This document shows positions 2,944-55,178 of a stretch of DNA of 64,000 nt, piece after piece. A model generated the notes under the pieces. The model ran no database searches. It worked only from the letters and a program-made list of their open reading frames with translations, and was not told the DNA's origin. Numbering within the stretch: the first letter of the stretch is position 1; each line of letters begins with the position of its first letter. The DNA is from a virus. Where the stretch lies: positions 207,416 through 271,415 of the IMG/VR virus record IMGVR_UViG_3300042558_004148. One strand, written 5' to 3'. A program made the position numbers and the translations under genes.

Positions 2944-4083
2944 ATGGAAAGAAAATTAGCATCAGTACAGAAAGTTAGAGAAATACTCCCAATAGAGGGA
3001 GCGGATGCAATAGAAATTGCAGTTATTAATTCATGGAAGGTTATCACAAAAAAAGGTGAATATCAGCCGGGAGATCTTTGCATTTATTGCGAGATTGATT
3101 CATTTCTCCCAATTAAAGAAGAATTTGAATTTCTCAGAAAGAGCTCGTTTAAAAAGATGGATGGTCAAGAAGGATTCCGCCTTAAAACAATTAGATTGAG
3201 AGGTCAAGTTAGTCAGGGTCTTATATTGCCATTATCAGTTTTAAATGGCGAGGAGGAAATGACTGTTGGTATCAGCCAGCAACCATGGGGAGATCAATTA
3301 CAACTTGGACCTTATGACGATGCACTTGTTATAGAAGAGGGAGCTGATGTTACTGAGATTTTAGGGATAGTCAAGTACGATCCACCAATCCCAGCTCAGC
3401 TTGCAGGTAAGGTTAAAGGTTACTTCCCATCATTCATTCGTAAGACCGACGAGGAAAGGGTTCAAAATCTAACTAATGAATATTTTGGGTGGAAAATACA
3501 ATCAGCTACTCAATTCTACGTTACTGAGAAATTGGACGGAAGCTCTGCAACATTCTATTTCAAGGATGGCGTATTTGGTGTGTGTTCTAGAAATCTAGAA
3601 TTGGCTGAGCCTGAAGCATTCGTTGAAGGTGAAATGGTAATGTGTCAGGATGGTGTTGAACGACCTAAGCAGGAAAATTCCTTCTGGAAAGTTGCTCAGC
3701 ATCTACAACTTGGAGATTGGATGGCAAAACAAGATGCCAACTATGCTATCCAAGGGGAGTTGATTGGCGAAGGAATTCAGGGAAATCCATATAAAATAAA
3801 AGGTCACACCGTTAGATTCTTTAATGCATTCAATATCGATACACAGGAATATCTAGGACTGGATGAATTTGAGGGCTTAATAAAATCAATGGGATTGGAA
3901 ACTGTGCCTATCTTAGATCGTAATTTTCTTCTTCCTAATACAGTTGATGATCTATTGGAATATGCTGACGCAAAATCAGTTTTAAATCCGGATTTCGATA
4001 GAGAGGGAGTCGTTATCAGAAGTCTTGATAGAAAGATTAGCTTCAAAGCTATCTCCAATAAATTCCTATTAAAAGAGAAATAA
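2944..4083 (+). CDS. ATP-dependent RNA ligase (nucleotidyltransferase superfamily)
   Basis: Ligase motif I KxDG (TEKLDGSS), a motif IV-like segment (IQGELIGEG) and a motif V-like segment (YKIKGHTVRF). The N-terminal VQKV..IEGAD...GDLCIYCEIDS stretch is typical of phage Rnl-type ligases. Confidence 0.65.
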   Translation: MERKLASVQKVREILPIEGADAIEIAVINSWKVITKKGEYQPGDLCIYCEIDSFLPIKEEFEFLRKSSFKKMDGQEGFRLKTIRLRGQVSQGLILPLSVLNGEEEMTVGISQQPWGDQLQLGPYDDALVIEEGADVTEILGIVKYDPPIPAQLAGKVKGYFPSFIRKTDEERVQNLTNEYFGWKIQSATQFYVTEKLDGSSATFYFKDGVFGVCSRNLELAEPEAFVEGEMVMCQDGVERPKQENSFWKVAQHLQLGDWMAKQDANYAIQGELIGEGIQGNPYKIKGHTVRFFNAFNIDTQEYLGLDEFEGLIKSMGLETVPILDRNFLLPNTVDDLLEYADAKSVLNPDFDREGVVIRSLDRKISFKAISNKFLLKEK

Positions 4084-10849: not shown

Positions 10850-10882
10850 TTTTTTATCTCCGTCTTTTTTTGTTATATTTGC
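10850..10882 (+). promoter_or_regulatory. phage promoter: upstream element TTTTTTATCTCCGTC plus -7 TATATTTG
   Basis: Matches the recurring element + N9 + TAnnTTTG architecture; about 15 nt before ATG 10897. Confidence 0.55.
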
Positions 10883-10896
10883 TAAAAAATAAAGAT

Positions 10897-11628
10897 ATGT
10901 TTAAATTTTACGAGGTTGGTGGAAAGGTTAGAGACGAGATTTTAGGATTACAGTCTAAAGACGTTGATTATGTTGCAGTTCCGAATGATGCTTTATTAAG
11001 CAAATATAAGGAGGCATATGAAATGTTTCTGTCTCTCGAGAATTATCTTACAACAAATGGATTTGAAATATTCCTATCTACTCCTGATTGCTATACAATT
11101 AGAGCGAAGTTTCCGAAAGACCATGTATATTCAGGCGTAGCGGACTTCGTAATGGCACGAAAAGAAGTTGGTTATGTTACAGGCACAAGAACTCCAATAG
11201 TTAAGCCAGGCACTCTATATGACGATCTAGAGCGAAGAGATTTTACCCTCAATGCTCTTGCTAAGGATGACGATGGAACCATCATAGACTTTTTTAATGG
11301 GATAGACGATCTTAAAGCTGGTGTATTGAAAACACCTCTTGATTGCAAGGTGACATTTGACGACGATCCGCTAAGAATTCTGAGAGCTATTAGATTTTCT
11401 ATAACCAAGGGATTTACCATGACACCACATATGGCCATCGTTATTGATTCCTACAATTATGACGAAAAAATGTCAGTGGTTTCAACCGAGAGAATCAGGG
11501 AGGAATTATATAAATGTTTCAAAGAGAATACATTAGGAACGCTAAGAATTCTTAATGAATTTCCAACTCTAAGAAATTACATTTTTGAAAAAACTGATCT
11601 TTGGTTAAAGCCAACTAACGAAAAATAG
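10897..11628 (+). CDS. tRNA nucleotidyltransferase (CCA-adding enzyme, head domain only)
   Basis: MFKFYEVGGKVRDEILGLQSKDVDYVAV matches the GGxVRD...DxD head motif and RRDFTLNALA matches RRDFTINA. The track start at 10870 is a TTG lying inside the -7 box, so the ATG at 10897 is preferred. Confidence 0.8.
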   Translation: MFKFYEVGGKVRDEILGLQSKDVDYVAVPNDALLSKYKEAYEMFLSLENYLTTNGFEIFLSTPDCYTIRAKFPKDHVYSGVADFVMARKEVGYVTGTRTPIVKPGTLYDDLERRDFTLNALAKDDDGTIIDFFNGIDDLKAGVLKTPLDCKVTFDDDPLRILRAIRFSITKGFTMTPHMAIVIDSYNYDEKMSVVSTERIREELYKCFKENTLGTLRILNEFPTLRNYIFEKTDLWLKPTNEK

Positions 11629-13479: not shown

Positions 13480-13822
13480 AAGTCTAAAATTCTATAGAGA
13501 TCCAGATGGATGGTTTGTTGATCTACCTGAATGGGAAGGTTCTAAAGCTGATCTACAGATGGTTGCAGGAGCTGACGTATTTCTGGATATAATGTCACAG
13601 GGAGAAAATGAGGTTTATTTAACATTATCAGATACTCCAATGGATAACTGCAGCCAATTAACATTCAAAGAAATTGGGAGGTTGGAAGGATTTGAATTAG
13701 GAGAGGGAGCATGGTACGTTCTTAATGAGTATATTGGGATAGAATATAATCATGATATGTGGCTATGTGATGTCACTAAATTTGTATTTGGCGAATTTCC
13801 TAAAATAATATACTTTATATGA
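13472..13822 (+). CDS. hypothetical protein
   Basis: ORF track. Confidence 0.45.
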   Translation: MTRSLKFYRDPDGWFVDLPEWEGSKADLQMVAGADVFLDIMSQGENEVYLTLSDTPMDNCSQLTFKEIGRLEGFELGEGAWYVLNEYIGIEYNHDMWLCDVTKFVFGEFPKIIYFI

Positions 13823-14679
13823 ATAAGCTAGAATACGTAACGAGACAATTAGCGAGAGCTGAAAGAAAAAGATACGAACATTATGTTGTTAGTAGGGTAT
13901 TTCATTTGTTGAATGATCTGTCCATTAAATTCATAACCCAGCAGTATGTAAATCGTCCTAGCGGTAGAGCTTTAACCGACATGTACTTTCCTCAATTTGG
14001 TGTTCATATAGAAGTGGACGAGCCACACCACAACAATCAAATTCAGGAAGATAAGCTAAGAGAACTCGATATAGTAAATGCAACTGGTCACGACATCATA
14101 AGGATAACAGTTTCTAATCAAACGATCGAAGATGTTAATGCGCAGATAGATTATGTTGTTAACCTAATAAAATCTAGGAAGTTAAATGATCCAGATTTTA
14201 AAGAATGGGATCCTGAACTGGAGCATAACACCGAAACATATTTAGCAAAAGGGAATATAGATCTTTCGGATAATTGCTCCTTCATGACCATGGTCGATGG
14301 AGCTAATTGTTTTGGTAATAGTTATAAACCTGGTGGAATTTGGAAGGGCGGAGCCAAGCACCAACACGAGGATAAGATCATATGGTTCCCGAAGTTATAT
14401 CCAAATAAAAAATGGATTAATACTATATCGGATGACGAGGAGATGATTACCGAAAAATCGGTTGATTCGGACATCACTGAAAAGTATGTTGATAAAATGA
14501 AATCAAAAGATCAGCCAAATCGTATAGTCTTTGCAAGAGTAAAGAGTCCGCTTGGTGAAGTTATGTACAGGTTTAGAGGAGAATATAAATTTGATACTGG
14601 TGCATCCAATTACGATGACGGTCTAATATTCAGAAGAATAGCAACTTCAGTAAAAACTTATAGAGACAATAGAATATAA
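13819..14679 (+). CDS. hypothetical protein with N-terminal DUF559/endonuclease-like domain
   Basis: LTDMYFPQFGVHIEVDEPHH...DKLRELDIVNATGHDIIRI resembles the DUF559 / Vsr-like nuclease fold (…iEvDG.H……D..Rd..L…G..vlR). Confidence 0.35.
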   Translation: MNKLEYVTRQLARAERKRYEHYVVSRVFHLLNDLSIKFITQQYVNRPSGRALTDMYFPQFGVHIEVDEPHHNNQIQEDKLRELDIVNATGHDIIRITVSNQTIEDVNAQIDYVVNLIKSRKLNDPDFKEWDPELEHNTETYLAKGNIDLSDNCSFMTMVDGANCFGNSYKPGGIWKGGAKHQHEDKIIWFPKLYPNKKWINTISDDEEMITEKSVDSDITEKYVDKMKSKDQPNRIVFARVKSPLGEVMYRFRGEYKFDTGASNYDDGLIFRRIATSVKTYRDNRI

Positions 14680-20064: not shown

Positions 20065-20922
20065 ATGAAAGACCCAATCGGAGATCGTATGAAATCTTTT
20101 TATGAAGATAGAACTCGATACAAGTTAACAAGAAGAACTTACACAATCATAAGAATTGACGGCAAGTCATTTAGTAATTACACAAAGGGATTAGAAAGAC
20201 CTTTCGACGAAGGACTAATCAATGACATGAATGCTACCACTGCATACCTTTGCAAAAACATTCAAGGAGCTAAATTAGGTTATGTACAATCAGACGAGAT
20301 TAGTTTAGTTCTAACTGACTTCGATGATCTAGGAACACATGCTTGGTTTGATAACAACCTACAGAAAATGGCGTCTGTAGCTGCTTCTATGGCAACAGCT
20401 AAATTTAATGAATTAAGGATTGCTAGAGCTTTTAGACAATATGAATGTCTATTCGATACGCCATTACAGATGAATGCCGATGAGATATTAGAATTTCTAT
20501 CTAAAATCAAGAAAGCTGAGTTTGACGCTAGGGTATTCCAAATCCCTTTTATCGACGAGGTTTGCAACTATTTTATTTGGAGACAACAAGATGCAGTAAG
20601 AAACTCAATTTCTTCGGTTGCACAAAGCCTTTATAGTACAAAAGAACTACATGGGGTTAAGACTGATGGAATGCAAGACCTAATCTTTCAGAAAGGAATC
20701 AATTGGAATGACTATGATTTTCGTAAGAAAAGAGGAGCAGTAATTGGCAAAGTAGAAAAGTTATTTACAAAGACCTCAAATTATTATGATCCTAATACAT
20801 CTTACATCCCGTCTGAACACATTTTTACTAGAAATGTATGGGAAGTTATTGAAACCCCAACGTTCACTCAAGACAAAGATTTTCTTAGAGATATTCTAAA
20901 CAAAGAAATAAAATCAGTTTAA
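20065..20922 (+). CDS. Thg1-like protein (tRNA-His guanylyltransferase family, 3'-5' polymerase)
   Basis: IIRIDGKSFSNYTKGLERPFDE, GYVQSDEISLVL and NNLQKMASVAASMATAKF align with the Thg1/TLP palm-domain motifs (RiDG..F, QSDE). Confidence 0.8.
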   Translation: MKDPIGDRMKSFYEDRTRYKLTRRTYTIIRIDGKSFSNYTKGLERPFDEGLINDMNATTAYLCKNIQGAKLGYVQSDEISLVLTDFDDLGTHAWFDNNLQKMASVAASMATAKFNELRIARAFRQYECLFDTPLQMNADEILEFLSKIKKAEFDARVFQIPFIDEVCNYFIWRQQDAVRNSISSVAQSLYSTKELHGVKTDGMQDLIFQKGINWNDYDFRKKRGAVIGKVEKLFTKTSNYYDPNTSYIPSEHIFTRNVWEVIETPTFTQDKDFLRDILNKEIKSV

Positions 20923-29247: not shown

Positions 29248-30765
29248 ATGTTTAAACCCACAAGTTTATTTTACACTGATGGCTATAAAATTGGCCACAA
29301 GAAAATGTTAGCTCCCGGAACAACCCGTTTGTACGGTACTTGGATTCCACGAAGCACAAAGCATGCTCCTGAGGGAGTAGATAAAATAGTATCATTCGGT
29401 CAACAATTGGTAGTGAAATGGTTACATGATGAATTCGAAGAGAATTTTTTCAAACAACCAATTAGCGTTGCTACTAAATTTTCCGATGATATGTCAAAGT
29501 ATTTAGGACTTCCGTTCGATGGTTCACACTTCTCGGAATTACATCATCTGGGTTACTTGCCTATTAGAATTAAAGCTTTACCTGAAGGTATCGAAACAAA
29601 CCCTAACATCCCTCACATGACATTTGTGAATACTGTGGATGGATTCGGATGGTTAACATTATATTTGGAGACCATCATATCTTCATTGGCATGGAAACCA
29701 GCAACCTCTGCTACACTTGCACTAAGATACCGAAGAAATTTGGTTGAATGGGTTACGAAAACTGATCCGGCTAACGCTTGGTTAATTCCTTTCCTATGTC
29801 ACGACTTCTCTGCTAGAGGTTTATCTCCATGGGATATGTTATCTAGTGGTTTAGGACACGCTACGTCATTCAGAGGATCTGACACTATTGTTTGTATTCC
29901 TGCAGCACGATACTTCTATAACGAGCCAGAAAACGATGTCTGCATCAATTCTGTTAACGCTTCTGAACACTCAGTATCAACAACAAAGATATTTACTGTA
30001 GGAGAACAACAAATGATCTCCGATTGGTTAACTGAATTCCCTACAGGAATCCTATCAATTGTATCTGACACTTTTGATTTATGGAAACTTATCACGGAAT
30101 ATCTTCCTGCAAATAAAGAGCAAATCATGTCACGTGATGGAAAACTTGTTATCCGTCCTGACTCTGGTGATCCAGTAGATATTATCTGTGGTTCAGTGGA
30201 TGTGTTTAAGCACAATGATCCTAATTCACCACAAAGAAAAGGTGTAGTTGAATTACTTTGGGATATCTTCGGTGGAACAATCAACGAACAAGGATACAAA
30301 GTTCTTGATCCACATATTGGTGCGATCTACGGGGATTCAATCACAGTTGGTCGTCAGATTCAAATCTATGAAAGATTAGAAGAAAAAGGTTTTGCTTCAA
30401 CAAACATCGTGTTGGGAATCGGATCATTCACTTATCAAATGAATACTAGAGATACTTTGGGATTCGCTGCTAAAGGAGCTTGGTTCGAAGTAGAAGAACC
30501 TATATTTGGTGAATTTTTAGACCAAAATCTAAATACTGAAAAGGTTGCTTATGACATCTATAAAGATCCAATCACTGACGACGGAACTAAAAAATCATTG
30601 AAGGGATTAGTTCAAGTTGTAATGGAAGGCGATGAATATCATGTTAATACTCAATGTACTTGGGAACAGGAGGAGCAGGGCTTTTTACAAACAATCTATG
30701 AAGAGGGAAGATTCGTTAACGAAACAACTCTTGAGGAAGTACGTAACAAATTAAATTCTTTATAA
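29248..30765 (+). CDS. nadV: nicotinamide phosphoribosyltransferase family protein (Nampt/NadV-like; candidate nicotinamide ADP-ribose transferase)
   Basis: LFYTDGYKIGHKKMLAPGTTRLYGTWIPRS matches the Nampt N-terminus (tDsYK.tH..yP..t..yS....R). NASEHSVSTT matches AAEHST. Length 505 aa. Confidence 0.75.
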   Translation: MFKPTSLFYTDGYKIGHKKMLAPGTTRLYGTWIPRSTKHAPEGVDKIVSFGQQLVVKWLHDEFEENFFKQPISVATKFSDDMSKYLGLPFDGSHFSELHHLGYLPIRIKALPEGIETNPNIPHMTFVNTVDGFGWLTLYLETIISSLAWKPATSATLALRYRRNLVEWVTKTDPANAWLIPFLCHDFSARGLSPWDMLSSGLGHATSFRGSDTIVCIPAARYFYNEPENDVCINSVNASEHSVSTTKIFTVGEQQMISDWLTEFPTGILSIVSDTFDLWKLITEYLPANKEQIMSRDGKLVIRPDSGDPVDIICGSVDVFKHNDPNSPQRKGVVELLWDIFGGTINEQGYKVLDPHIGAIYGDSITVGRQIQIYERLEEKGFASTNIVLGIGSFTYQMNTRDTLGFAAKGAWFEVEEPIFGEFLDQNLNTEKVAYDIYKDPITDDGTKKSLKGLVQVVMEGDEYHVNTQCTWEQEEQGFLQTIYEEGRFVNETTLEEVRNKLNSL

Positions 30766-47545: not shown

Positions 47546-48364
47546 ATGCCAGAATTACCAGAAGTAGCTAGAGCAGCACTATCATTAAATACTGCAATAC
47601 AGGGTAAAACATTAAGTGATGTTATCGTACACTCGGGAAGATATTCCAGACATGGGGATCCAGTCGGGTTAGCTAATTTTAGTGAGGAACTTCCTGCACA
47701 TGTTGATAATGTTACCTTCTGTGGAAAACTTATCTTATTTGAATTTACCGGTAAGAGCGGGAAAAAATGGTGGCTTTGGAATACACTCGGCATGGGAGGT
47801 GGATGGAGACATGAGAGAACAAAACACGGACATGTTGAGTTTGTAACAAATGACGGTTCAGTTTTCTTCACAGATATACGTAATTTCGGTACATTGAAAT
47901 TTGTAGATAGCGAGAATGAAACAAATAAGAAAAAATCATCCATTGGACCTAATCATTTAGCAGATACAATTTCCGACGAGTTATTCAAGACCCGATTACT
48001 TAAAAGACCGAACCGTACTATGCCAGAGGTCTTAATGGACCAATCACTAATAGGTGGGATAGGCAATTACATTAAAGCTGAGATCCTTTATATTGCAGGG
48101 ATTTCACCGCACCGAATTGTAAATACACTATCCGACGAGGAATTTGCAAAACTTAATGCAGCAACCAAGGATGTGGTTAATAAATCATTCGCCAGTCAGG
48201 GAGCATCCATAAGTACATATAAGGGAATGGATGGCGAAGAAGGAGACTTTGTATTTTATTTCAAAGTATACGGTAGAAAAGAATGCGAGAGTGGATTCAC
48301 GGTAATAAGAGAAACTACGAAGGAAGGAAGAACAACTCATTGGGTTCCACAAATACAAAAATAA
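47546..48364 (+). CDS. Fpg/Nei-family DNA glycosylase (formamidopyrimidine/endonuclease VIII-like)
   Basis: N-terminal MPELPEVARAAL (catalytic Pro2/Glu3). Central H2TH-like region LMDQSLIGGIGNYIKAEILYIAGISP. C-terminal finger-like segment. Confidence 0.75.
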   Translation: MPELPEVARAALSLNTAIQGKTLSDVIVHSGRYSRHGDPVGLANFSEELPAHVDNVTFCGKLILFEFTGKSGKKWWLWNTLGMGGGWRHERTKHGHVEFVTNDGSVFFTDIRNFGTLKFVDSENETNKKKSSIGPNHLADTISDELFKTRLLKRPNRTMPEVLMDQSLIGGIGNYIKAEILYIAGISPHRIVNTLSDEEFAKLNAATKDVVNKSFASQGASISTYKGMDGEEGDFVFYFKVYGRKECESGFTVIRETTKEGRTTHWVPQIQK

Positions 48365-48762: not shown

Positions 48763-48971
48763 GTATAAAAGATAGGATTAAGGCATTTTTTGATGCAGCC
48801 GGAGCATTTTTTCGATGGATGTGGATGTATCCAACAACTCCAATTGAGAATTTTCAGGATGCAAGGTTTCGCTACAGTTCTCAATTGGATCCGGAGATTA
48901 TAAAAGCATTTGATGACATACAAAAATCAATAGAAGAGCATCAGCGTGGTAATAAAAAAATTAATTCATGA
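48747..48971 (+). CDS. hypothetical protein
   Basis: ORF track. Confidence 0.35.
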   Translation: MDKKIGIKDRIKAFFDAAGAFFRWMWMYPTTPIENFQDARFRYSSQLDPEIIKAFDDIQKSIEEHQRGNKKINS

Positions 48972-49177
48972 GAAGTTTTAATAATCTCTTTGATGTAATC
49001 GATATGAAAGCATCTATTAAACAACCAGATACTTACCACCGTATAGAAGAGGAAATAGCATCATTACACAGGCTCCTAGATAAATTAGCACCTAATACAA
49101 TGGGTGAGGGTGATCTTATAGGTAATAGGATAGAGAAATTATTATCATCAGATGCAGATTGGGATAAAATAAAATAG
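48968..49177 (+). CDS. hypothetical protein
   Basis: ORF track. Confidence 0.35.
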   Translation: MRSFNNLFDVIDMKASIKQPDTYHRIEEEIASLHRLLDKLAPNTMGEGDLIGNRIEKLLSSDADWDKIK

Positions 49178-49183
49178 CAAATT

Positions 49184-49217
49184 ATTTTTTTATCTCGTAT
49201 AAATTGATTAAATTTGT
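49184..49217 (+). promoter_or_regulatory. phage promoter driving tRNA-like gene A: TTTTTTTATCTCGTA - N9 - TAAATTTG
   Basis: The -7 box lies about 15 nt upstream of the predicted 5' end of the tRNA-like RNA at 49232. Confidence 0.5.
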
Positions 49218-49231
49218 ATAACAATTAAAAA

Positions 49232-49311
49232 GGTCCTGGAGCTTAATCTGACGTGGAAGTCAGGTCTGCCTCTAAAACAGATAGCATCGGGTTCGAATCC
49301 TGCTAGGATCA
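49232..49311 (+). tRNA. tRNA-like gene A (80 nt, non-canonical D region), anticodon loop C-U-CUA-A-A (amber-suppressor-like CUA)
   Basis: Acceptor GGTCCTG pairs with TAGGATC (two G.U pairs). T arm CGGG-TTCGAAT-CCTG. Anticodon stem TCTG/CAGA closes the loop CTCTAAA. Discriminator A. No encoded CCA. Confidence 0.45.
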
Positions 49312-49317
49312 CAAAAG

Positions 49318-49330
49318 AGTTCTTTGAAAT
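49318..49330 (+). repeat. 13-bp direct repeat AGTTCTTTGAAAT (copy 1)
   Basis: Identical 13-mer recurs at 50148..50160, bracketing about 820 bp. Confidence 0.5.
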
Positions 49331-49597
49331 AGTAAGATAGCAGATAGACCTATATCAGCAGAATCCCACAGGGAGTCAGAAATGACGAGCAAGACGGAGC
49401 TCCTATCAGATTAACGCGTTGAGGAGGCACTCAAAGTTTTCCGAGAGGTTAACAGGTGTATAAACGATGGTTTGGGTAGAACGGATGTTAAAGGCGAGAT
49501 ATAGGTAGAAAGGATGGGGTAACCCACGAATGTGTAAATCTTAAGGTCTTACTATTTTAATTATTCTTGATTGATAATTAACACTTAAAAAATATTT

Positions 49598-50143
49598 ATG
49601 GCAACATTATTTGCATTTGGAACAATTTGGTTTTGGTTCCTAATTACGGCGGTTCTAGTAACCATTATTTCCATCACTGAATTGGAGGAGTCGTCATCCT
49701 GGCATTGGCCAATATTACTAGGAATCCCAACACTGCTATACTTTACTGGATGTGCAGATGAGATCAATTCCATTATAAACTATGCTAAGGATAATCCATT
49801 AGCAATAATTCTGATCTTAGGTGGATATTTATTAGTAGGTACCCTCTGGTCTTTCATTAAATGGTTTCTATATCTTACAAATTTAACGGAATATTACAGA
49901 AAATATCCATATAATTTCAGTTCAGCTAAGGATAAATTTAATGCTAGGGAAAATAAGGAGAGAATCATTAATTGGATGATGTATTGGCCGTTGTCAGGAA
50001 TTTGGACATTGATCGACGATCCAGTTAAGAAAGCATTCCAAAAGATATTCTCCGGATTAGAAAACAGATTCCAAAAGATATCAGATAATTTAACAGAGGA
50101 ATTTACCGAAAAGGAATCTGAAGAATTTGACAAGAGAGGTTAA
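49598..50143 (+). CDS. integral membrane protein
   Basis: Several TM helices. Confidence 0.45.
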   Translation: MATLFAFGTIWFWFLITAVLVTIISITELEESSSWHWPILLGIPTLLYFTGCADEINSIINYAKDNPLAIILILGGYLLVGTLWSFIKWFLYLTNLTEYYRKYPYNFSSAKDKFNARENKERIINWMMYWPLSGIWTLIDDPVKKAFQKIFSGLENRFQKISDNLTEEFTEKESEEFDKRG

Positions 50144-50147
50144 AAAT

Positions 50148-50160
50148 AGTTCTTTGAAAT
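50148..50160 (+). repeat. 13-bp direct repeat AGTTCTTTGAAAT (copy 2)
   Basis: See copy 1. Confidence 0.5.
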
Positions 50161-50164
50161 TATA

Positions 50165-50840
50165 AAAAATATCATAAAAACGGCCTGGTTGGTAGACAGG
50201 GAGGAGTATTTAATGTAATCTGCTCAATGTGAGGAAATAACTGTCTGTAGGCATACAACAGTCCAAACGATAAACCATTATGATACAATTAGCAATGGAG
50301 GTAAACGCGAGATGAAGCGTTGGAGAATAGGGGCTCATGGATTTGAGATTCCCGCCTGGCTACCCATCAGGACTTTATAAGATAATTCCATCCACCTATA
50401 AGAAACCATTGCTTTTTAAAATATATTTAGTTAATAAATATTTTGGGGAAAGGATTAATTAACTAAACAGGTTAAACATTGAATACCTTTGTAAATTATA
50501 GTTGGGCATTTCACAGATGAGTGTTTAGATGAGTTTGAATCTCAGATTGTCCTCAAAGTTAAGAAGTTGAAAGACTCTTTTGCTATAGGTTTACATAAAG
50601 ATACTATCAGTAATGGTAGATGTGTTGTTCCCTTGAGAAAGGAATACGATTTGGCAAGCTTGGTGCAGGAGTTTTGATACTGACAAGACAACACAAATGA
50701 GTTCTCAGCAAGTGCTTCGAAAAGCTATGCAGTTTTAAAACTCCTATGGAGCCTTACAAACTAGAAGTACGTGACCCTACTCTTATACAAGCCCCGTAAC
50801 TGATAACTCGGTAGGCTATAAGAAAGAGGGTGCTAAATAA
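50165..50840. other. about 680-bp ORF-free, GC-richer block; candidate structured ncRNA(s)
   Basis: No ORF of 60 aa or more on either strand. Composition differs from the flanking AT-rich genes. It sits inside the tRNA-like cluster. Confidence 0.3.
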
Positions 50841-50845
50841 AAGTT

Positions 50846-51052
50846 ATGGAAAGAGAAATAAGTAAAGAAACTGATGAGTTTATTGATAAATTAGACCATC
50901 TATGTTGGGAACATCGCTTTGAAATTTGGCCAACTGATACCATTAATAAAAGAAATGAAGATGGATCATATCCAACTTTTACTATTCATAATATGAGCAA
51001 TGGGGAAACAGTAAGATTAATATATGTCGATGGTGACGGAAGAGGTAAATAA
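50846..51052 (+). CDS. hypothetical protein
   Basis: ORF track. Confidence 0.4.
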   Translation: MEREISKETDEFIDKLDHLCWEHRFEIWPTDTINKRNEDGSYPTFTIHNMSNGETVRLIYVDGDGRGK

Positions 51053-51058
51053 TTAAAT

Positions 51059-51228
51059 AGTCAGGTGGCGGAATTGGTAGACGCTATTTTGAAAGCAAAC
51101 AGTTGCAGGATTAGATCGGCACCAGCTAAGTAGTATCAAATGCCATTAAGGTACTGGGTCGTAATAACTGATATTAACCGCTCGCGGTTGGCATGTAATC
51201 CATGCAGGTTCGAGTCCTGCCCTGACTA
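51059..51228 (+). tRNA. tRNA-like gene B (about 170 nt): type-II-like 5' half and T arm/acceptor separated by an insertion of about 100 nt
   Basis: 5' AGTCAGG-TG-GCGGAATTGGTAGACGC (canonical acceptor + D arm). 3' GCAGG-TTCGAGT-CCTGC + CCTGACT + A. The acceptor strands are complementary. About 100 nt too long for a tRNA. Confidence 0.45.
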
Positions 51229-51268
51229 CGAATTCTTATCGACGTTGATAAGAAGAAAAACAAATATA

Positions 51269-51727
51269 ATGAAAAGAACAAAATTAATTTTAATTGCGAT
51301 GTTAAGTGTTTTGTCACTAAGTACATTCGCTCAATCCATTACATCGGTAGTTACCCCGGCAACTAGTGATACTTTATGCAATGGATCAACCACTTTTACC
51401 GGAGCTAATCCATCAGCAGTGTTTATTTGGATGCAACAAGGGACAACACCAATTGCAACGTTTACATCGGATTCAACAACCTATAATCTATGTCCAGGAA
51501 TATATGATGTTCAAATTTGGAACAATATGACGGATACGATGTACTATGATACAGTCATTACCATCCTATCACCATCAACACATTTAGGAATCGATGAATT
51601 GACAAATGAAGCCAAAATTGTAGGAGTATTTGATTTAGTAGGTAAAGAATCTGAATTGGTAACAAATAAACCTCTGGTTTTGGTTTATAGTAACGGAACA
51701 AGAAAACGTAGATATATTACAGAATAA
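51269..51727 (+). CDS. secreted protein
   Basis: The internal ATG at 51269 gives a signal peptide MKRTKLILIAMLSVLSLSTFAQ. The track start 51140 lies inside tRNA-like gene B. Confidence 0.5.
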   Translation: MKRTKLILIAMLSVLSLSTFAQSITSVVTPATSDTLCNGSTTFTGANPSAVFIWMQQGTTPIATFTSDSTTYNLCPGIYDVQIWNNMTDTMYYDTVITILSPSTHLGIDELTNEAKIVGVFDLVGKESELVTNKPLVLVYSNGTRKRRYITE

Positions 51728-51734
51728 TAAAAAA

Positions 51735-51864
51735 AGTCAGGTGGCGGAATTGGTAGACGCTAGACAGGTAACCAACTACAACTGTAATAAACCCGCTGAT
51801 CACGGTTAATAAGAACAGCTCTGTCGCAGAGGTTGGTATACAGGTTCGAATCCTGTCCTGGCTA
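51735..51864 (+). tRNA. tRNA-like gene C (about 130 nt): first 28 nt identical to gene B; insertion of about 57 nt
   Basis: 5' AGTCAGGTGGCGGAATTGGTAGACGCTA is identical to B. 3' ACAGG-TTCGAAT-CCTGT + CCTGGCT + A. The acceptor pairs with one G.U pair. Confidence 0.45.
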
Positions 51865-52009
51865 CTTAGCAAGGCATAAACGATAAGGAAAATCTGTCAC
51901 AAGTTTATGTTAAGTTGCAGACAGACCGAAATGCTTACGGTTAACAGGGCTTACCCATAAAGTCCAGAGAGCATAATCTAACGGGTGACTGATGGAAAGA
52001 CATCAAAAT

Positions 52010-52096
52010 AGTCAGGTGGTGTAATAGGCAACACCCTTCATTATCAGGCCCCGTAAGGCTGGAAGGACGACGCAGGTTCGAATCCTGTCCTGACCA
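52010..52096 (+). tRNA. tRNA-like gene D (87 nt) with an extended (about 32-nt) anticodon-arm-like hairpin
   Basis: Acceptor AGTCAGG/CCTGACC (A1.C72). D arm GTGT-AATAGGCA-ACAC. Long hairpin CCTTC...CAG(G)CC-CCGTAA-GGCTG...GAAGG. T arm GCAGG-TTCGAAT-CCTGT. Confidence 0.45.
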
Positions 52097-52217
52097 CTAA
52101 AACAACTAGCGGAGTAGGCACAAATCTTCGTTAACAGTGGTATTTAAGTAGGTTTGGGGATGCTGTGTAGTCCATTGAAAACTAAACCGAAGATTGCTTA
52201 TGTAGTTGTTTTTATAC

Positions 52218-52283
52218 AGTCAGATGAAAGTAGGCTAAGACGAATTAAGTTTCGCGTTGCAGGTTCGATTCCTGCTCTGACTA
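52218..52283 (+). tRNA. tRNA-like gene E (66 nt, degenerate; possibly a pseudo-tRNA)
   Basis: Acceptor AGTCAGA/TCTGACT and T arm GCAGG-TTCGATT-CCTGC. The internal region is too short for both a D arm and an anticodon arm. Confidence 0.35.
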
Positions 52284-52309
52284 CTAATATTAAATTAAAA
52301 AAATTCCAT

Positions 52310-52636
52310 GTGAATGTAGACTTATTTAGACATTGGCTTCCGGACTTAAGACAAACTCAAAACAAGAGTGCTTATGTAGCAAAGCAATGCCCGATTTGTC
52401 CAAGAACCCCGAATAGCAAATCGTTTCGTATAAACACGAAACTAAAAGTTTTTAAGTGCTATCAATGCGGAAGAGGTGGAAAGAACTTTAATAAGATGGT
52501 CCATTATTTAAAGAAACGTGATACTAGTGTACATAGTAATAAATATCTGAAGAAAATAGGTCGTCGTCCAGTGTGTGTTCCTATTGAGGTTCATTACGGT
52601 TGTGAAACTTTCTATGAAAGTCAGCTCCCATTTTGA
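52310..52636 (+). CDS. CHC2 (primase-type) zinc-finger protein, start uncertain (GTG)
   Basis: CPICPRTPNSKSF....KVFKCYQCGRGGKNFNKMVHYL matches the DnaG CHC2 finger. The frame is open back through tRNA-like gene E with no ATG, so GTG 52310 is the first plausible start. Confidence 0.4.
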   Translation: MNVDLFRHWLPDLRQTQNKSAYVAKQCPICPRTPNSKSFRINTKLKVFKCYQCGRGGKNFNKMVHYLKKRDTSVHSNKYLKKIGRRPVCVPIEVHYGCETFYESQLPF

Positions 52637-54447: not shown

Positions 54448-54463
54448 TCTCACCTTTTTTATA
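54430..54463. terminator. bidirectional rho-independent terminator between convergent genes
   Basis: AAAAAAGGTGAGATttaATCTCACCTTTTTTAT; A-run and T-run flank the hairpin. Confidence 0.65.
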
Positions 54464-55178
54464 TTGAATTGTAGCCATTCTTTATGGAATCGTGGTGGTT
54501 TATCCAGAATCTTTCTCTCTCGAAAATGAATTTATCAGCTTCTGAATATTCCTTTGTATCATCCGGGATCTTAACAACCTCTATCACTTCAAATGTCCAA
54601 TCACTAATCTCGGTTGTCTTTATCTCATTGTGGAATTTAGTGCTACCGAGTTGGAAAAAGTGTTGATACCATCGGAAAGTAAATGCTTGTGTTGTCTTTC
54701 CTATATAGGATAGACCAGTTTTCTTATTGGTTATCTTGTATATGACAGGAATGTGTTTACCGTTCATTACGTTATCCTCATTCCACTTTACGGTCTCAAT
54801 AAGCTTTGCTTCGTGTTTACATTCATCGGAGCAATATTCAGATCCCTTATTTAAACAATTAGCATCATTGTACTTATCAATTATTCTGAATTCAGATCCA
54901 CAAGTGGAACACTCCCTTGATGAAAATAACCTAGAATGCCCAGAGTTTTCCGTTATTTCAGTTATTGCTAGAAGATATTCATTAGCATCTATATCCTTAT
55001 CAAGAACTCTTAGTGGAAATTTTCTACCGTATTCCTCGTCTATAATTAGTTTAGCTTCCTTTCTATCAGTAGCTGAAACCTTACCACTGAATATGGGAGG
55101 GAAAGCCCATTTCCCATATGAATATGGGTCACTCGGATTATTCTTACCCTTTATCTGATAATAGAATTCCTTCATCAA
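54459..55178 (-). CDS. GIY-YIG nuclease-domain protein with N-terminal Cys cluster (homing-endonuclease-like)
   Basis: IPVIYKITNKKTGLSYIGKTTQAFTFRWYQH...E...NGYN gives GIY ... YIG ... R ... H ... E ... N. N-terminal CSTCGSE...CSDEC. Confidence 0.6.
   Translation of the reverse strand: MMKEFYYQIKGKNNPSDPYSYGKWAFPPIFSGKVSATDRKEAKLIIDEEYGRKFPLRVLDKDIDANEYLLAITEITENSGHSRLFSSRECSTCGSEFRIIDKYNDANCLNKGSEYCSDECKHEAKLIETVKWNEDNVMNGKHIPVIYKITNKKTGLSYIGKTTQAFTFRWYQHFFQLGSTKFHNEIKTTEISDWTFEVIEVVKIPDDTKEYSEADKFIFERERFWINHHDSIKNGYNSI

Follow-up and report, generated by a model that had tools for sequence, protein, structure and literature searches.

Five loci that have the ends of a transfer RNA (tRNA) and, for the most part, not its length raise the question of which kind of RNA gene they represent. 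They lie in a 64,000-nucleotide (nt) stretch of viral DNA (IMG/VR record IMGVR_UViG_3300042558_004148, positions 207,416 to 271,415), referred to below as the window, and are named A to E in their order along it (Table 1). An earlier note on this DNA had described five tRNA-like loci on the + strand, with lengths of 80, 170, 130, 87 and 66 nt, and had suggested intron-like tRNAs, tRNA-derived structured RNAs or decoys. Their number, places and lengths were confirmed. Five copies of the T-loop motif GGTTCGANTCC were found in the window (at 49290, 51207, 51843, 52075 and 52262), all on the + strand between 49290 and 52272; the expectation from shuffled sequences is 0.08, and five copies were reached in none of 100 shuffles. 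On balance, B, C, D and E appear to be functional, non-decoding modular RNA genes, in which a frame derived from tRNA-Leu carries an inserted domain, here called the cargo. Locus A is probably of a separate kind and is treated last.

The frame and its family

An acceptor stem, a T arm with a loop of the TPsiC type and a discriminator A followed by C were present at every locus from A to E, and CCA is not encoded at any of them, as had been described. The acceptor stems had been given as 7-bp helices of properly complementary strands. A helix is indeed present in all five; in D only six of the seven pairs form, the A1.C72 position being mismatched, and the acceptor of A includes two G.U pairs. 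The sequence AGTCAGRTG forms the start of B, C, D and E and has no other copy within the window. A D arm with G18G19 was found in B, C and D and in E there is none. At default settings, ARAGORN reported zero tRNAs and zero transfer-messenger RNAs (tmRNAs) across the whole window. With the Rfam tRNA model (threshold 29 bits), a check that had been proposed for these loci, D (37.8 bits) and C (33.1 bits) passed, E (27.5 bits) and A (25.4 bits) were slightly under the threshold and B gave no match. In these alignments the acceptor, D and T arms were matched and the middle was skipped, while E was matched at the acceptor and T arm only. An Rfam scan of 48900-52600 and of the Proteus locus described below gave, at E <= 10, weak tRNA matches only.

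The 26 nt at the start of B and C, AGTCAGGTGGCGGAATTGGTAGACGC, have exact matches in at least 118 IMG/VR contigs. Downstream of this 26-mer there follows, nearly always, an unrelated stretch of 15-140 nt and then (A/T)ACAGGTTCGAATCCTGTCCTGACTA. A query with the 3' 25-mer gave at least 120 IMG/VR contigs, 102 of these new, and both queries combined gave at least 220 distinct contigs. The family was defined by a 5' part, AGTCAGG-UG-D arm, and a 3' part, U48-T arm-CCTGACT-A, with a non-tRNA insert between them. B and C fit this definition exactly at the 26-mer, D and E are variants that occur elsewhere too, and A does not fit. A pattern search of the contigs found by the 5' half gave 191 members, 172 of them unique, mostly 90-130 nt in length and with up to eight copies per locus. 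In 93 copies picked by the 5' half, the 3' half was 95% identical to the consensus, and the median pairwise identity of the cargos was 0.50 versus 0.49 in shuffled sequence. The U48 position was T in 234 and the discriminator was A in 254 of 272 members. Covariation is seen in the D stems of members picked by the 3' half (GCGG/CGC, GCUU/AAGC and the GUGU/ACAC of locus D), and the D-arm variant of locus D recurs in other members of the family. G.U pairs were seen in the + strand reading only. These results uphold the remark that random tRNA decay would look different: the frame is 95% identical, the G.U pairs are strand-specific and the D stems covary.

In other contigs the family members share the strand of neighbouring tRNAs and are interspersed in canonical tRNA arrays; in one contig (L119) eight members lie amid about 30 tRNAs. 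With the Rfam tRNA model they scored 29-47 bits, versus 50-75 bits for their canonical neighbours. The window is unusual among these loci in having tRNA-like RNAs and not one canonical tRNA. Ordinary tRNA-Leu genes with ordinary acceptor stems are also present in phages of the family.

The frame is derived from class II tRNA-Leu, of which it keeps the acceptor, U8, the D arm with G18G19 (GGCGGAAUUGGUAGACGC, as in bacterial tRNA-Leu), U48, the T arm and A73. It is from these elements that the elbow of a tRNA and the acceptor/T minihelix are built. The anchor point of the cargo corresponds to the long variable arm of a class II tRNA: a closing helix of at least 6 bp that ends 2-3 nt ahead of the T stem was found in 27% of the members versus 10% of shuffles, and the enriched position is the site of the class II variable arm. 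The family differs from tRNA-Leu in lacking an anticodon arm, in an acceptor that begins A1-U72 and in its length of 60-200 nt.

An anticodon stem-loop directly after position 26 was defined as a 5-bp stem with a 7-nt loop containing U33 and a purine at 37. It was present in one of 93 family members, compared with 1.1 in shuffled inserts, and in none of B, C, D and E; among the five loci only A has an anticodon stem-loop. At default settings, ARAGORN called 29-30 members of the family, with identities spread over a dozen amino acids. In intron mode the program finds a solution for B, for C and for a hybrid of D and E, as well as for 138 of the 172 members, and the phage has an RNA ligase; both facts favour the idea that the inserts are removed with the help of this ligase to give working tRNAs. 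However, the fits were inconsistent, with about 20 amino-acid identities, only 22 of them Leu, and intron positions scattered from 26 to 42. Removal of the whole insert leaves no anticodon arm, and the search for an intron-split tRNA, by ARAGORN intron mode and by the direct anticodon-arm test, left no consistent tRNA after insert removal. At 15-140 nt the inserts fall below the size of group I introns, and no match to the group I intron model (Intron_gpI) or to another non-tRNA Rfam family was obtained at E <= 10. The intron-like alternative was therefore abandoned. B to E are neither decoders nor decayed nor intron-split tRNAs.

Cargos of loci B to E

In B and C the anticodon and variable arms have been replaced by a self-folding cargo, which varies from copy to copy of the frame. 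The cargo of B was found in the same AGTCAGG frame on a metagenome contig (L248), with about 90% identity inside the RNA and unrelated flanks. At least five compensatory double changes distinguish the two RNAs, located in the T stem, two cargo helices and a hairpin. Over an 88-nt core this cargo has 81-83% identity to a roughly 190-nt RNA of Proteus, P22-like and Pseudomonas (pro)phages. That RNA was found in Proteus phage Brookers, in further P22-like prophages, in six Pseudomonas genomes and in many metagenome contigs, and in no E. coli genome. The RNAalifold consensus of ten B-cargo RNAs has compensatory changes in 12 of the 37 predicted pairs, and a further helix exists in four covarying versions (GCAAGC/GCTTGC, GCGAAC/GTTCGC, GAGAGT/ACTCTC and GGATTA/TAATCC). 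The invariant core of the 190-nt RNA consists of GGUUUGAAAGCWAACAGUU, CCRGCUAAGUA, UCGUAAUAACUG and GGCAUG.

The proteobacterial B-cargo RNAs contain no tRNA sequence. A covarying closing stem, followed by ACC(A), is present at their ends, and two hairpins stand at the places of the D and T arms, with loops, GGCUGA and AGAUCAGCA, that are complementary to each other (GCUGA/UCAGC). The D-like and T-like loops, which are invariant, may kiss and so imitate the tRNA elbow. For cargo B the shape of a tRNA seems to be of importance, as a tRNA-shaped frame is kept in these relatives without tRNA sequence. In P22-like phages the RNA belongs to the early leftward leader: the repressor/NYN genes lie on one side of it and, immediately downstream, an arginine-rich N-like gene on the other. 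The gene downstream of the B-cargo RNA otherwise varies and no consistent one was found. The RNA is either unannotated or overlapped by small 'hypothetical protein' calls.

For the cargo of C, homologues with 95% identity over 63 nt were found in two contigs (L050 and L073). Its closing helix covaries, from ACCAAC/GTTGGT to a GTCAAC/GTTGAC version. Among the suggestions made earlier, that of tRNA-derived structured RNAs thus stood for B to E, with a frame kept in at least 220 contigs and inserts conserved with compensatory changes in B and C. An antisense function was considered and rejected: neighbouring RNAD-type (see below) and tRNA-type cargos were not more complementary than random pairs, and no antisense matches of cargos or spacers in the window were above the shuffled level.

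Interpretation, rival explanations and known systems

If B to E are modular RNA genes of this kind, the island would be transcribed from the promoter at 49184 and from internal promoters as long precursors. Host RNase P would cut at A1 and a 3' processing nuclease after A73, and the 3' end would be completed by a phage or host CCA-adding enzyme. The same cuts would free the intervening structured RNAs (S1, S3 and S4 in Table 1). The tRNA shape would confer tRNA-like stability and handling, possibly including charging by leucyl-tRNA synthetase (LeuRS), and the cargo would carry the specific activity, for example binding to a factor of the host or the phage. LeuRS recognises its tRNA without reading the anticodon, the bacterial enzyme through A73 and the D/T tertiary core; Larkin et al. 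reportedly found in 2002 that a minimal tRNA-Leu without anticodon and variable arms is still charged. Charging of B to E by LeuRS is therefore possible. An RNA ligase, a Thg1-like enzyme and a CCA-adding-type enzyme are all encoded in the window, as the earlier note had pointed out, and from this co-occurrence it is plausible that the phage enzymes act on the B to E RNAs.

Several observations weigh against this interpretation. Minimum free energy z-scores of the five loci were -0.5 to -1.3, not better than shuffles, so that the support for A to E as structured RNAs comes from sequence comparison and not from thermodynamics. Selection on the cargo was seen for a minority only, B and C included, and the cargos of D and E have no homologue; the 172 unique members fell into 149 cargo clusters, 130 of which were singletons in this sample. 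Both family scans were keyed on the acceptor sequence, and the apparent invariance of the acceptor stem is in part a result of this acceptor-anchored way of finding members. No protein family was consistently linked to the frame when 3,663 open reading frames (ORFs) from 220 loci were clustered, the maximum being 19 of the 220 loci. The frame is present in no cultured phage of a 50,697-record collection, where it was found in one uncultured Caudoviricetes record (MW202828); other frame matches in this collection were to a generic D arm or T arm only. Finally, each step of the proposed pathway (transcription, cleavage by RNase P and at the 3' end, CCA addition, charging) is an inference.

The simplest rival is punctuation only: the elements would be RNase P/RNase Z signals that cut the transcript into flanking RNAs or small mRNAs, and the inserts would be filler. 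Analogues are mitochondrial tRNA punctuation and MALAT1/mascRNA, the latter sharing a principle with the AGTCAGG family and not family membership. The elements do abut conserved RNAs (C/S3/D/S4/E) and small ORFs, the last base of an RNAD-like frame is often followed directly by an element, E amounts to no more than an acceptor/T minihelix, most cargos are singletons and terminators inside the island are absent. On the other hand, filler would not be expected to undergo the compensatory changes seen in the B and C cargos, nor to recur across phyla. A minimum such as E would also do for cleavage, yet most members carry 40-120 nt together with a D arm and U48, features dispensable for cleavage. 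Punctuation as the whole explanation is thus considered unlikely.

Equally doubtful, on present evidence, is a role as decoys or charged effectors. The RNAs would be tRNA-Leu mimics that titrate or mislead a host factor recognising the tRNA body, or that deliver leucine to a non-ribosomal acceptor; possible targets are a tRNA-cleaving defence nuclease, LeuRS, EF-Tu, a tRNA-modifying enzyme or the ribosome, and the cargo would tune specificity or block cleavage. The retention of A73 and the D/T tertiary core, which bacterial LeuRS uses instead of the anticodon, is consistent with such a role, as is the ACC(A) end kept by the distant relatives of cargo B, and an arms race would be expected to yield just this combination of a fixed frame with extremely diverse cargos. 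Known anticodon nucleases, however, recognise the anticodon loop, which is absent from B to E, and no defence or counter-defence gene was consistently nearby.

It is quite improbable that the loci are decaying tRNA-Leu pseudogenes, or recombination or homing sites at the DNA level whose ends happen to resemble tRNA halves. Decay would not be expected to leave a frame 95% identical across at least 220 contigs, with strand-specific G.U pairs and D-stem covariation. A gene for a GIY-YIG homing endonuclease lies nearby (54459-55178), comparable to segB in the T4 tRNA cluster, identical ends of 25-26 nt could promote cassette exchange, and B and L248 share the RNA and not the flanks. DNA sites would nevertheless have no need of a D arm, U48 and a T loop, and recombination at the ends may move cargos and so account for their spread, not for their function. 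Intron-bearing tRNAs are the least credible of all, given the inconsistent fitted identities, an anticodon stem-loop not above chance, the absence of a group I signal and the occurrence of the B insert as a conserved domain in non-tRNA frames.

Among known systems, the setting of B to E resembles that of T4 RNAC (species 1) and RNAD (species 2), small stable RNAs in the tRNA cluster of T4-type phages, with functions that have yet to be established (PMC3014915, PMC9697503). T4 rnaC combines a terminal stem resembling an acceptor with the T arm CCGGG-UUCGAAU-CCCGG and some 105 nt of insert; both this stem and the T arm covary among T4, Aeromonas PS49 and Yersinia TG1. B to E match the RNAC type in architecture and setting: an acceptor-like stem, a canonical T arm, a large insert and a T4-type island. 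RNAC differs in having no tRNA-Leu D arm and no sequence homology to the AGTCAGG frame, and blastn of the region against phage records gave no T4-like match. RNAC and RNAD are furthermore single genes, kept whole in 793 T4-like phage records, and not a multi-copy frame with interchangeable inserts. In GenBank records of T4-like phages, the rnaD-rnaC region is mostly labelled 'hypothetical protein' or left blank, and EcS1 labels it tRNA-Phe.

RNAD resembles a second frame in the window, at 50622-50694, in its closing helix and in the UUCCCUGAGUAAGGAA hairpin, with the pattern UUCCC(U)UGAG(A/U)AAGGAA. T4 rnaD (AF158101, 71053-71171) reads UGAUG-GUUCCCUGAGUAAGGAAU...CAUCA and shares the 5' frame. 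Moreover, T4 rnaD is followed by rnaC, the same order as the RNAD-like frame and the AGTCAGG elements. The link between RNAD and 50622-50694 rests on the 16-17-nt hairpin, the flanking helix and the gene order. The RNAD-like frame was found at 25 places across the collected loci, the window copy included and T4 rnaD among the other 24, and with a strict pattern it ended at the first base of an AGTCAGG element in at least five places. In the window it is nested in a longer conserved RNA (about 50498-50840), and the 3' part of the window copy departs from the common form, being longer, and recurs in L081 and L089.

tmRNA likewise has an acceptor/T-arm domain round a large functional insert and is charged without an anticodon. 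B to E differ from it in lacking the alanine identity pair G3.U70 (3:70 is U-A), a tag reading frame and a pseudoknot series, and the inserts of the family are much shorter and mutually unrelated. Another likeness is to the engineered 'tRNA scaffold' for recombinant RNA, which Ponchon and Dardel are said to have introduced, and in which the acceptor, D and T arms are kept for processing and protection and a structured RNA replaces the anticodon or variable arm. The scaffold is man-made, whereas the family is natural and has many versions; RNA engineers' scaffold thus appears to have a natural counterpart. Aptamer-tagged tRNAs have also been engineered (PMC7590224).

YrlA, a bacterial Y RNA-like RNA, is a modular non-coding RNA with a tRNA-like domain in bacteria and phages (PMC4201824). 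Its topology is the opposite, as its ends form the Ro-binding stem and its tRNA-like part is internal, whereas the ends of B to E form the acceptor stem. No Rfam match to YrlA or Y RNA was obtained in the window, where a Ro/Rsr gene was not searched for. GOLLD and ROOL are phage RNAs of unknown function beside tRNA arrays (PMC12286853, PMC5737381), and the GOLLD linker sometimes carries tRNAs (PMC12286853). They are 600-800 nt long with conserved folds of their own, and they hold a tRNA inside a big RNA, whereas the family holds a foreign RNA inside a tRNA; Rfam detected neither in the window. In one contig (L126, 3644-4051) a GOLLD RNA (Rfam, 298.8 bits) shares its island with four AGTCAGG-frame members and a homologue of S3.

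A tRNA-Leu-derived, multi-copy frame with interchangeable inserts sets the family apart from T4 RNAC, its closest precedent, to which it is not homologous in sequence. No Rfam model for the AGTCAGG family was found, and the literature searched contained no description of it, which, as open-access papers were searched, is no proof of absence. As tRNA finders either miss these genes or assign random identities to them, a common class of phage RNA gene is invisible at present. The T4 RNAC/RNAD question gains testable handles from a family with hundreds of members and a frame-plus-cargo design. Cargo B is a compact and highly conserved domain across phages of Bacteroidota-type hosts, Pseudomonas and Enterobacterales, and its presence, always in a tRNA-shaped frame, across such phages suggests that it binds something universal.

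A wider reading can be offered tentatively. Phages with tRNA islands might practise a natural 'RNA display', in which a few fixed frames (tRNA-Leu-derived and RNAD-type) present a vast repertoire of small structured domains. In that case the tRNA shape would itself contribute to function, since cargo B keeps a tRNA-shaped frame and ACC(A) in proteobacterial phages, rebuilt from different sequence. If so, the domains would be aptamer-like effectors against host or rival factors, the cassettes would move by recombination at the frame halves, and T4 RNAC and RNAD, unexplained for about 50 years, would be the first known members.

The RNA-gene island and surrounding genes

The promoter reported 15 nt before A, with its conserved upstream element, was found as described. 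It is one of eight copies in the window of a promoter class consisting of ATTTTTTTATCTCG, a spacing of about 12 nt and TAnnTTTG, all upstream of genes (Table 1). The TAnnTTTG box is the -7 element of the Bacteroidota type, and a Bacteroidota-type host is accordingly indicated. No intrinsic terminator signals were detected inside the island.

Table 1. Positions of the RNA elements, promoters and selected genes. Numbers refer to the window unless a contig is named.
Feature	Position	Strand	Description
Phage promoter	49184-49216	+	Upstream element ATTTTTTTATCTCG 49184-49197; -7 box TAAATTTG 49209-49216
Promoter-class copies	7994, 10848, 12370, 26815, 29196, 43675, 49184, 55843		Upstream element (A)TTTTTTATCTCG
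Locus A	49232-49311	+	80 nt; form with 8-bp acceptor and 4-bp T stem; outside the AGTCAGG family
Locus A, alternative form	49239-49311	+	Standard 73-nt cloverleaf, anticodon CUA
S1	49329-49555	+	Structured RNA of about 225 nt directly after A; GNRA-capped hairpin; closing stem, then T run
Second frame, T4 RNAD-like	50622-50694	+	Helix GTGTTG/CAACAC and hairpin TTCCCTTGAGAAAGGAA round a variable middle
RNAD-like frame elsewhere	L028, L029, L044, L088, L147, L168, L170, L221, others		GTGTTG-TTCCCTTGAGAAAGGAA...CAACAC-AGAGGACTTCTCATCCTCAA
Locus B	51059-51228	+	170 nt; exact family 26-mer at 5' end
Locus B parts	51059-51228	+	Acceptor 51059-65/51221-27; D arm 51068-84; cargo 51085-51203; T arm 51204-20; discriminator A 51228
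B-cargo RNA, proteobacterial	L001 1471-1657; L002-L009; L233-L243; L244-L268		L001 is Proteus phage Brookers (OL539469)
Locus C	51735-51864	+	130 nt; exact family 26-mer; Rfam tRNA match skipping 72 nt
Locus C parts	51735-51864	+	D arm 51744-60; cargo 51761-51839; T arm 51840-56; acceptor 3' strand 51857-63; discriminator A 51864
S3	51865-52009	+	145-nt structured RNA, C-D interval
Locus D	52010-52096	+	87 nt; AGTCAGG-frame variant; A1.C72 mismatch
Locus D parts	52010-52096	+	D arm with GUGU/ACAC stem 52018-35; cargo 52036-71, a 30-nt hairpin and linker; T arm 52072-88
S4	52097-52217	+	G+C-richer non-coding spacer, D-E interval; read from sequence and composition profile
Locus E	52218-52283	+	66 nt, minimal member; acceptor AGTCAGA/TCTGACT; T arm 52259-75; one short hairpin
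RNA ligase	2944-4083		
CCA-adding-type nucleotidyltransferase	10870-11628		
Thg1-like protein	20065-20922		PF04446, E = 4e-28

Several further RNAs lie between the tRNA-like elements. S1 is 86.6% identical over 254 nt to L082 4631-4883, and its closing stem shows compensatory change, with ATAGTAAGA/TCTTACTAT in the window versus TTGGTAAGA/TCTTACCA in L082; it has no Rfam match. S3 is 89.7% identical to L126 1126-1271, where it likewise follows a family member, and four of its helices have compensatory changes. For S4 the homologue search was negative. A motif, GTTAACAG, is common to S1, S3 and S4. The 13-mer AGTTCTTTGAAAT was found at 49319-49331 and 50149-50161 and, in unrelated contigs, at about 4633 in L082 and about 12200 in L170, closely preceding structured RNAs that differ from place to place; a function as promoter element, or as processing site, of RNA genes is possible. 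At 50174-50363 there is a G+C-richer non-coding stretch whose ends, GGCCTGGTTGGTAGAC ... GGATTTGAGATTCCCGCCTGGCTAC, look like those of a decayed frame copy. This candidate for a sixth, degenerate element was left uncounted, as its ends are not complementary and the homologue search was negative.

Locus A is the one locus to which the description of aberrant length, correct for B to E, does not necessarily apply, since it can also be read as a standard 73-nt cloverleaf. In this reading the anticodon loop is CUCUAAA and three pairs are mismatched. ARAGORN with a lowered threshold reported tRNA(cta) at 49239-49312, and the Rfam alignment of A extended over its full length with three non-standard pairs. 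No homologues of A were found in IMG/VR. Locus A is probably a weak standard tRNA with an amber-reading CUA anticodon, separate in kind from B to E and of uncertain function. Recoding of the stop codon was considered as the reason for this anticodon and rejected, as 13 of 86 ORFs use TAG as an ordinary stop and translation under code 11 leaves the ORFs intact.

Window proteins beside the elements have no relatives at the other loci, except for a 68-amino-acid ORF (50846-51052). This ORF lies directly upstream of B, and its homologue in L078 (...EIWPTD motif) lies directly downstream of a family member. A gp23-type capsid protein is encoded in the window, which identifies the virus as a T4-type phage. 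The GIY-YIG gene mentioned above, of the group-I-intron homing endonuclease type, is on the - strand, adjoins the island and recalls segB in the T4 tRNA cluster. The window further encodes a PvuRts1I-like/SRA-domain endonuclease, a type recognising modified cytosine (13819-14679), a nicotinamide phosphoribosyltransferase (29248-30765) and a DNA glycosylase of the Fpg/Nei type (47546-48364).

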